From Escherichia coli O127:H6 str. E2348/69 (GTDB lineage: Bacteria; Pseudomonadota; Gammaproteobacteria; Enterobacterales; Enterobacteriaceae): a stretch of DNA of 64,000 nt. The notes beneath the pieces are model-generated. The model ran no database searches, had not been told where the DNA came from, and saw only the letters and a program-made list of their open reading frames with translations. How positions within the stretch are numbered: the first letter of the stretch is position 1; each line of letters begins with the position of its first letter. The stretch lies in the NCBI RefSeq assembly GCF_000026545.1, contig NC_011601.1; one strand, written 5' to 3'. The translations under genes were made by a program, and so were the position numbers. Positions 30,114-30,185 of the stretch are shown here, in pieces.

Positions 30114-30185
30114 GGCATGTCCTTATGACTTCACTTTATGACATCAATAGTATGACATCACAATATGAAGTCAAGTTTCCCTTCC
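30114..30185 (-). promoter_or_regulatory. promoter/operator of the HicA/HicB-like cassette
   Basis: On the minus strand TTGACT-16 nt-TACTAT then AAGGA Shine-Dalgarno 6 nt before the ATG; GTCATA/TTCATA motif repeated four times and inverted pair TGACTTCA/TGAAGTCA overlapping the promoter. Confidence 0.5.

Follow-up and report, generated by a model that had tools for sequence, protein, structure and literature searches.

The DNA analysed here, a stretch of 64,000 nucleotides (the window), is 100% identical to E. coli E2348/69 in the region considered and carries on its minus strand rbbA and yhhJ, followed by hicA and hicB, with nikR on the opposite strand and convergent with hicAB (Table 1). 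The original prediction put 72 bp between the end of yhhJ and the start codon of hicA, and the ORF limits at 30186 and 30113 bear this out; it further described this interval as a repeat-rich promoter of a toxin-antitoxin cassette and as its likely autoregulatory operator, and the results below largely concern that proposal.

Table 1. Features of the yhhJ-hicAB region (window positions; promoter and operator elements are predictions)
Feature	Position	Strand	Basis and remarks
rbbA	31310-34045	minus	
yhhJ	ends at 30186, stop included	minus	ORF coordinates
yhhJ-hicA intergenic gap (whole putative promoter/operator)	30114..30185 (72 bp)	minus	ORF coordinates
-35 hexamer TTGACT	30169..30174	minus	shares its last five bases with the start of box 1
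Operator unit A (box 1, linker tattg, box 2)	30153..30173	minus	exact match to TGANNTCA-N5-TGANNTCA; covers the -35 and the spacer
Box 1, TGACTTCA	30173-30166	minus	overlaps the -35
Box 2, TGATGTCA	30160-30153	minus	
-10 hexamer TACTAT	30147..30152	minus	16-bp spacer; fills the exact 6-bp gap between the two 21-bp units
Operator unit B (box 3, linker taaag, box 4)	30126..30146	minus	from just past the -10, through the predicted start, into the leader
Box 3, TGATGTCA	30146-30139	minus	
Predicted transcription start	30139..30142	minus	from hexamer position only, 5-8 nt 3' of the -10
Box 4, TGAAGTCA	30133-30126	minus	
Shine-Dalgarno AAGGA	30120..30124	minus	sequence reading; 6 nt 5' of the hicA ATG
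hicA, 91 aa	29838..30113	minus	ORF and Pfam
hicB, 119 aa	29482..29841	minus	ORF and Pfam; 4-nt overlap with hicA (ATGA)
Terminator-like hairpin and U-rich tail	29381..29427 (stem 29427-29395)	minus	perfect 15-bp A+T-rich stem

The hicAB cassette is present at the yhhJ stop in 2070 of 5426 complete E. coli genomes (38%), including EPEC E2348/69 and O157:H7. Homology to cassette-free genomes resumes exactly at the yhhJ stop (query 807/809 corresponding to window 30186/30188), so the 72-bp interval belongs to the hicAB cassette and not to yhhJ; on the left side O157:H7 carries a different island, which limits the constant part of the cassette to roughly 29473-30185. Genome H20 was also considered as a guide to the left boundary and set aside as uninformative, its junction being the product of an IS1-mediated deletion. 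The right edge of the cassette in E. coli is always the yhhJ stop codon, and the nikR-yhhJ gap as a whole is a hotspot of variable content, with hicAB here and Rhs/IS remnants in other strains (30186-30188; L003, L053 and L055). An aldolase island stands beside hicB in this gap in O157:H7, and hicB adjoins nikR in one K. pneumoniae record.

The upstream gene of the cassette encodes a HicA-domain protein, matching PF07927 over residues 30-80 (2.3e-9, 37.7 bits against a 27-bit cut-off in Pfam) behind a conserved two-helix N-terminal extension of 29 aa. Its AlphaFold model (pLDDT 93.6) has an α-β-β-β-α core, for which Foldseek returned 6g26_E/F, 6hpb_A and 1whz at TM(target) 0.61-0.70 and with weak E-values, and BLASTP against K-12 HicA yielded no alignment. 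Characterised HicA toxins carry their catalytic histidine in a GSH or GSxH (GSNH) motif. G49-S50-R51 is invariant in 20 HicA proteins of this family and is followed by a variable residue, with no histidine, a placement made by motif inspection only; H64 and H67 (FHRPHP) are likewise invariant among family members.

The downstream product combines an N-terminal partial RNase H-like domain with a C-terminal ribbon-helix-helix (RHH), and matches the HicB family PF05534 in Pfam (2.1e-15, 56.8 bits), while its C-terminus reaches Pfam Arc at 0.0077 and 16.5 bits, below the 20.4-bit cut-off. The two proteins thus bear out the earlier description of a toxin-antitoxin cassette with an RHH antitoxin, the HicB C-terminus being Arc-like. 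The HicB model (pLDDT 80) shows a four-stranded sheet and a long helix, then helices 87-99 and 104-118, and its top Foldseek matches are the HicB structures 6g26 (B. pseudomallei), 6u0i (E. coli) and 4p7d (Y. pestis). It is a monomer without a formed β-ribbon, pLDDT falling below 50 at residues 76-81, and the RHH β-strand K79-TFTLRY-P86 was assigned from the Arc alignment, which takes in both the β-strand and the helices of Arc (KIKTFTLRYP versus KMPQFNLRWP, E 0.03-0.3). Sequence searches of both proteins against the PDB returned no HicB or HicA entry and only Arc and AmrZ (E ~0.03-0.3), so that family placement rests on Pfam and the fold search; neither HicA nor HicB had a match in NCBIfam.

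A consensus scan recovers the predicted promoter, TTGACT-16-TACTAT at 30174..30147 on the minus strand, with 9 of 12 matches. The same scan detects three promoter-like sites in 1.2 kb where 1.9 are expected, so a 9/12 hexamer match is not significant on its own, and it identifies no internal promoter within hicA. Of 35 homologous loci, 29 have a promoter-like site whose -35 falls at -62..-58 relative to the ATG, as against 0.33% of random positions, a comparison whose P-value is nominal because the loci are related. At these loci the TTGAC[T/G] -35 sits inside a box and TATAAT-like hexamers stand at the same place as TACTAT. From the position of the predicted start, the hicA leader would be about 26-29 nt long.

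The repeat unit of the interval is an 8-bp box, TGA-NN-TCA (TGANNTCA), present in four copies whose starts are 13, 14 and 13 bp apart. The original prediction had named a hexamer, GTCATA/TTCATA, as occurring four times; the count is correct (GTCATA three times, TTCATA once), but the hexamers are the 3' parts of the larger boxes and not the unit itself. It had also placed an inverted pair over the promoter: TGACTTCA and TGAAGTCA are indeed reverse complements, and TGACTTCA does overlap the -35, but TGAAGTCA lies 3' of the -10, within the predicted leader and off both hexamers, and the pair are simply boxes 1 and 4. The four boxes form two 21-bp units (8-5-8) that lie six bases apart and abut the -10 hexamer on both sides, making the whole element a 48-bp imperfect palindrome centred on the -10, so that repeated, palindromic sites overlap the putative core promoter of the cassette. 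Such an arrangement is not expected by chance: the 64-kb window contains 25 boxes (0.39 per kb), which predicts 0.025 in the 72-bp interval where four are observed, and among 20,000 dinucleotide shuffles of the interval none contained four boxes, the maximum being two. Elsewhere in the window, 72-bp stretches contain two boxes at most, and the 21-bp pattern TGANNTCA-N5-TGANNTCA has two matches in 64 kb (0.00 expected), both within the interval.

The boxes extend well beyond E. coli. HicB searches define a compact family across Enterobacterales at 60-84% identity, and 49 loci were fetched from species-representative genomes (60 fetched loci in the scan for the 21-bp pattern). Homologous cassettes, set in unrelated genomic surroundings, carry the same boxes in about 30 species of Enterobacterales, with the consensus TGACTTCA, which accounts for 70 of 102 boxes. 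The position of the hicA ATG is conserved across more than 30 homologues, and most loci keep the full 91-aa length; the upstream genes and sequences are wholly different between genera, yet two to four boxes stand just 5' of hicA at nearly every locus. Over 34 loci, the 100 nt ahead of hicA hold TGANNTCA at 31 per kb versus 0.30 per kb in 175 kb of flanking DNA, an enrichment of about 100-fold, and the strict box TGAC[T/G]TCA in either orientation at 27.6 versus 0.068 per kb. All matches to the 21-bp pattern in the 60 loci lie just 5' of hicA or, at loci lacking hicA, just 5' of hicB. It is important to note that the loci are phylogenetically related and that the interval travels with the cassette, so nominal P-values overstate their independence.

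Not only the boxes but also their register is preserved. An unbiased MAFFT alignment of 20 upstream regions places the invariant columns in the boxes, whereas the 5-nt linkers and the promoter spacer vary, and unit A of the window aligns with unit A of other genera. Successive box pairs are 13 bp apart in 44 of 75 cases, the first box after the -10 begins 31-35 nt before the ATG, and per-slot conservation is 80-91% for three slots. The best-conserved slots are the two boxes 3' of the -10 (91% and 89% with at most one core mismatch), which is the place expected for a repressor. Most genera have in unit A two boxes 13 bp apart, the last of which supplies the -35 TTGAC[T/G], then a 16-17-bp spacer and a -10 that shares its final T with the start of the first box in unit B; beyond unit B come the Shine-Dalgarno sequence and the ATG. 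A different arrangement is seen in E. coli, C. sedlakii and Enterobacter sp. JUb54, where unit A has the -35 in its first box and its second box falls in the spacer; their units are 27-28 bp apart from start to start, versus 39-42 bp elsewhere. Since a T in front of a box is enough to give TTGAC, insertions and deletions of unit length would preserve a promoter, an outcome that we infer from the alignment. Four boxes spaced 13, 16 and 24 bp apart are seen in Photorhabdus (L011-L013), outside the slot scheme and with no clear -35/-10 in register.

Comparison with more distant HicB homologues addresses which protein might read the boxes. The strand KTFTLRYPE is invariant in 19 aligned HicB homologues from box-bearing loci. 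On a Salmonella plasmid, where the HicB β-strand is KSFTLRY, four TGACGTCA boxes are found in the same layout; an E. coli plasmid with RLTLRV carries TGACACCA-N5-TGACGTCA twice; an E. hormaechei plasmid (pEho8-4 type) with VSTRLT has TGGTATCA-N5-TGATACCA; an Acinetobacter plasmid with FNTRIP has AGTACCA-N5-TGGTACT; and Ralstonia phage Dina, with FVLRVE, has TTGATACT-N7-AGTATCA. The sample is small, comprising these five distant examples, and in every case an upstream element of about 21 bp lies over the core promoter while its letters change with the β-strand. Retention of the format while the letters follow the β-strand is the pattern expected if HicB reads the boxes. The sites are therefore conserved in orthologous cassettes and matched to the presumed DNA-reading residues of the antitoxin, and the covariation supplies a small set of natural variants in the specificity with which RHH proteins recognise DNA.

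That RHH antitoxins repress their own toxin-antitoxin operons is textbook knowledge. Taking the conserved boxes, the conserved promoter position and the β-strand covariation together, we propose, with a probability of roughly 0.8, that 30114-30185 is the cassette's own σ70 promoter embedded in an operator for autorepression by HicB; the comparative sequence evidence thus favours the autoregulatory role put forward originally. HicB would dimerise via its C-terminal RHH and place a two-stranded β-ribbon (KTFTLRY) in the major groove at the boxes, each box taking one RHH dimer and each 21-bp unit two, on the model of the Arc operator, and a HicB tetramer supplying both dimers. HicB alone or a HicA-HicB complex would then occupy the -35, the spacer and the start-site region, exclude RNA polymerase and repress hicA-hicB, and excess HicA would weaken binding and derepress the operon, by analogy with characterised hicAB modules. 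Cooperative RHH dimers and arrays usually have a spacing of 10-11 bp, whereas the boxes here recur at 13 bp (~1.25 helical turns), which makes the proposed stoichiometry uncertain; the assignment of one dimer to each box, drawn from the Arc analogy, is the weakest step of the mechanism. The Arc operator is itself 21 bp long and takes up two RHH dimers, the β-ribbon of each recognising one subsite. Phage P22 Arc is the closest sequence relative of solved structure for the HicB DNA-binding domain (1b28/1myl; 29% identity over 41 columns in Foldseek), with FNLRW in the β-strand where HicB has FTLRY, but it is a free-standing protein of 53 aa with different half-site sequences and subsite centres about 11 bp apart, whereas the HicB described here has an additional toxin-binding N-terminal domain.

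Characterised hicAB systems, as described in two published accounts (PMC11594946; PMC10865869), offer further points of comparison. In modules with an RHH-type HicB (class 4 of PMC10865869, type II), with which the present pair agrees in domain content, repression comes from binding of HicB, or of the HicAB complex, to palindromes located on the -10 or close to it, and the complex loses stability when HicA is in excess (PMC11594946; PMC10865869). The Y. pestis hicA3-hicB3 operon (Bibi-Triki et al. 2014, as described in PMC11594946) is toxin-first with a single upstream promoter, as here, and its antitoxin likewise has a C-terminal RHH and forms tetramers (PMC11594946). Two operators, BS1 and BS2, flank or overlap the core promoter of PhicA3 in a manner similar to the two units here, the one overlapping the -10 being the main one, and both HicB3 and the HicAB complex repress (PMC11594946). 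HicB3, however, is about 135 aa long versus 119 aa here and has no detectable sequence similarity to it, the resemblance being structural (4p7d), and hicA3 and hicB3 lie 174 bp apart (PMC11594946) where hicA and hicB here overlap by 4 nt. The operator principle is accordingly well known, and it is the format that differs, with 15-bp inverted repeats described for Y. pestis (PMC11594946) and paired 8-bp TGA-NN-TCA boxes in two 8-5-8 units of 21 bp here.

The B. pseudomallei antitoxin, an RHH tetramer (Winter et al. 2018, as described in PMC11594946 and PMC10865869), provides the best match to the HicB model (6g26_B, probability 0.99) despite a sequence identity of about 10%. It binds a palindrome overlapping the -10, and this binding is destabilised by excess HicA; a single palindromic region over a predicted CRP-S site is described, and no four-box, two-unit layout is reported (PMC11594946; PMC10865869). 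K-12 hicAB (Turnbull and Gerdes 2017, as described in the same two accounts) belongs to the same species and is toxin-first, as here, but it is a different locus from the cassette at the yhhJ stop. HicB autorepresses there at an inverted repeat, hicO, and excess HicA relieves repression; K-12 HicB uses a helix-turn-helix where the present one has an RHH domain, and of the two K-12 promoters, P1 and P2, the HicB-controlled P2 yields antitoxin only (PMC11594946; PMC10865869), whereas one promoter is predicted here. Our literature search, whose coverage fell short of most subscription journals, returned no relevant paper on this cassette or on the TGACTTCA operator. The present analysis thus adds a concrete candidate operator, defined by box (TGACTTCA), unit (8-5-8) and geometry, for a common, uncharacterised hicAB cassette that is widespread in Enterobacterales.

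Other explanations of the interval must be weighed against autorepression by HicB, and one of them would place the function of the boxes at the RNA level. No terminator-like structure is found in 30114-30185, and a candidate within the 3' end of yhhJ (30262-30245) does not exceed its shuffles in stability (z = +0.7). As there is no intrinsic terminator between yhhJ and hicA, the earlier suggestion of read-through is sustained as plausible: transcription of rbbA-yhhJ may well continue into hicAB as well, provided that it is not stopped by bound HicB. The first terminator-like signal 3' of yhhJ on the minus strand is the hairpin at 29427-29395 (-15.3 kcal/mol, z = -6.2), which probably terminates both hicAB and read-through yhhJ transcripts. 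This hairpin lies between hicB and nikR, and part of it (29380-29422) stands beside nikR in one cassette-free genome, so the hairpin may predate insertion of the cassette. The interval itself is predicted to form a 20-bp hairpin in read-through RNA (-26.9 kcal/mol, z = -5.0; none of 200 shuffles is as stable), and the C. sedlakii upstream region folds comparably (z = -5.65), so the boxes might act mainly as RNA, the hairpin masking the hicA leader or else affecting the processing, stability or insulation of the yhhJ and hicAB messages. We consider this improbable. Across 31 distinct upstream regions the fold z-scores run from +1.0 to -5.7 with differing topologies, which rules out an RNA structure conserved between genera; most genera have their boxes in direct orientation (TGACTTCA four times), making a long stem impossible; and the 5' arm of the E. 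coli hairpin lies upstream of the predicted start and would be absent from the cassette's own transcript. There is no Rfam match in 29300-30400 either. The hairpin, which follows automatically from palindromic boxes, is best treated as their by-product.

The promoter could also be real and its boxes read by something other than HicB, namely PhoB, CRP or RNA polymerase itself through reiterated -35-like TTGAC sequences. TGTCATA, which boxes 2 and 3 both contain, is the heptamer at the core of the Pho box, an element that consists of two 7-bp CTGTCAT direct repeats with an 11-bp period; the two copies here are 14 bp apart, however, and are specific to E. coli, other genera having TGACTTCA in their place, so the interval does not qualify as a Pho box. 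TGTGA at 30162-30158 would serve as a CRP left half-site, and CRP-S sites occur in the hicAB promoters of both K-12 and B. pseudomallei, in B. pseudomallei a predicted one (PMC11594946). The right half is poor (ACTAT versus TCACA), which together with the lack of conservation rules out a CRP or CRP-S site. Mimicry of the -35 is in keeping with the TTGAC look-alike in every T-preceded box and with a -35 role that seems to shift between boxes, both after a 14-bp deletion described below and in the E. coli clade, but it leaves unexplained why the best-conserved boxes lie 3' of the -10 and why the motif changes with the HicB β-strand. Readers other than HicB therefore strike us as quite unlikely, about as improbable as a main role in RNA. 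Least probable of all, and by our estimate very improbable indeed, is that the boxes are a scar or substrate of cassette insertion next to yhhJ, such as recombination-site repeats, with no regulatory role. The interval does begin exactly at the cassette boundary, and the 14-bp deletion was mediated by repeats, yet cassettes inserted at many unrelated places, and those on plasmids, have the same boxes equally far from the hicA ATG, no matching repeats exist at the other end of the cassette, and the register of the boxes with the -35 and -10 is fixed.

Autorepression by HicB can also be drawn into a broader and still doubtful synthesis. The 8-5-8 two-unit layout may be a family-wide code of PF05534-type HicB proteins, in which the β-strand predicts the box; the E. 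coli operator would be a remodelled version, with unit A moved 13 bp closer to unit B and the -35 role passed to the other unit A box; and its 48-bp palindrome might double as a hairpin in rbbA-yhhJ read-through RNA. Should this hold, hicAB expression would be coupled to, or insulated from, the ribosome-associated rbbA-yhhJ operon.

Variation within E. coli provides two natural states of the operator. Of the complete genomes, 1269 have the 4-box allele, among them O157:H7, which differs by one linker mismatch, and about 790 have a 3-box allele (L002 2190-2292; L005). The latter lacks 14 bp (window 30147-30160, comprising box 2 and TACTAT) deleted between identical TGATGTCATA copies, and the deletion recreates TTGACT-16-TAAAGT, so that the allele probably keeps a promoter, 14 bp closer to the ATG. 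In 788 of 793 3-box genomes codon 2 of hicA is TAA (AGA→TAA; L002 2229-2234, corresponding to window 30108-30113), the rest of the frame being intact with 21 further substitutions, mostly synonymous (three amino-acid changes); PGAP annotates a 76-aa HicA from CTG in these strains, and HicB is identical (WP_000593555.1). As judged from these sequences, 3-box strains probably make antitoxin without toxin, and the two alleles offer a natural comparison for the joint evolution of operator copy number and toxin loss. Box units lie directly 5' of hicB at three further loci (L055 from K. pneumoniae, L038 and L049), and recurrent decay to an autoregulated orphan antitoxin is suggested. Loss or truncation of hicA with retention of hicB is seen in several relatives, at these three loci and also at L006, L012 and L021.
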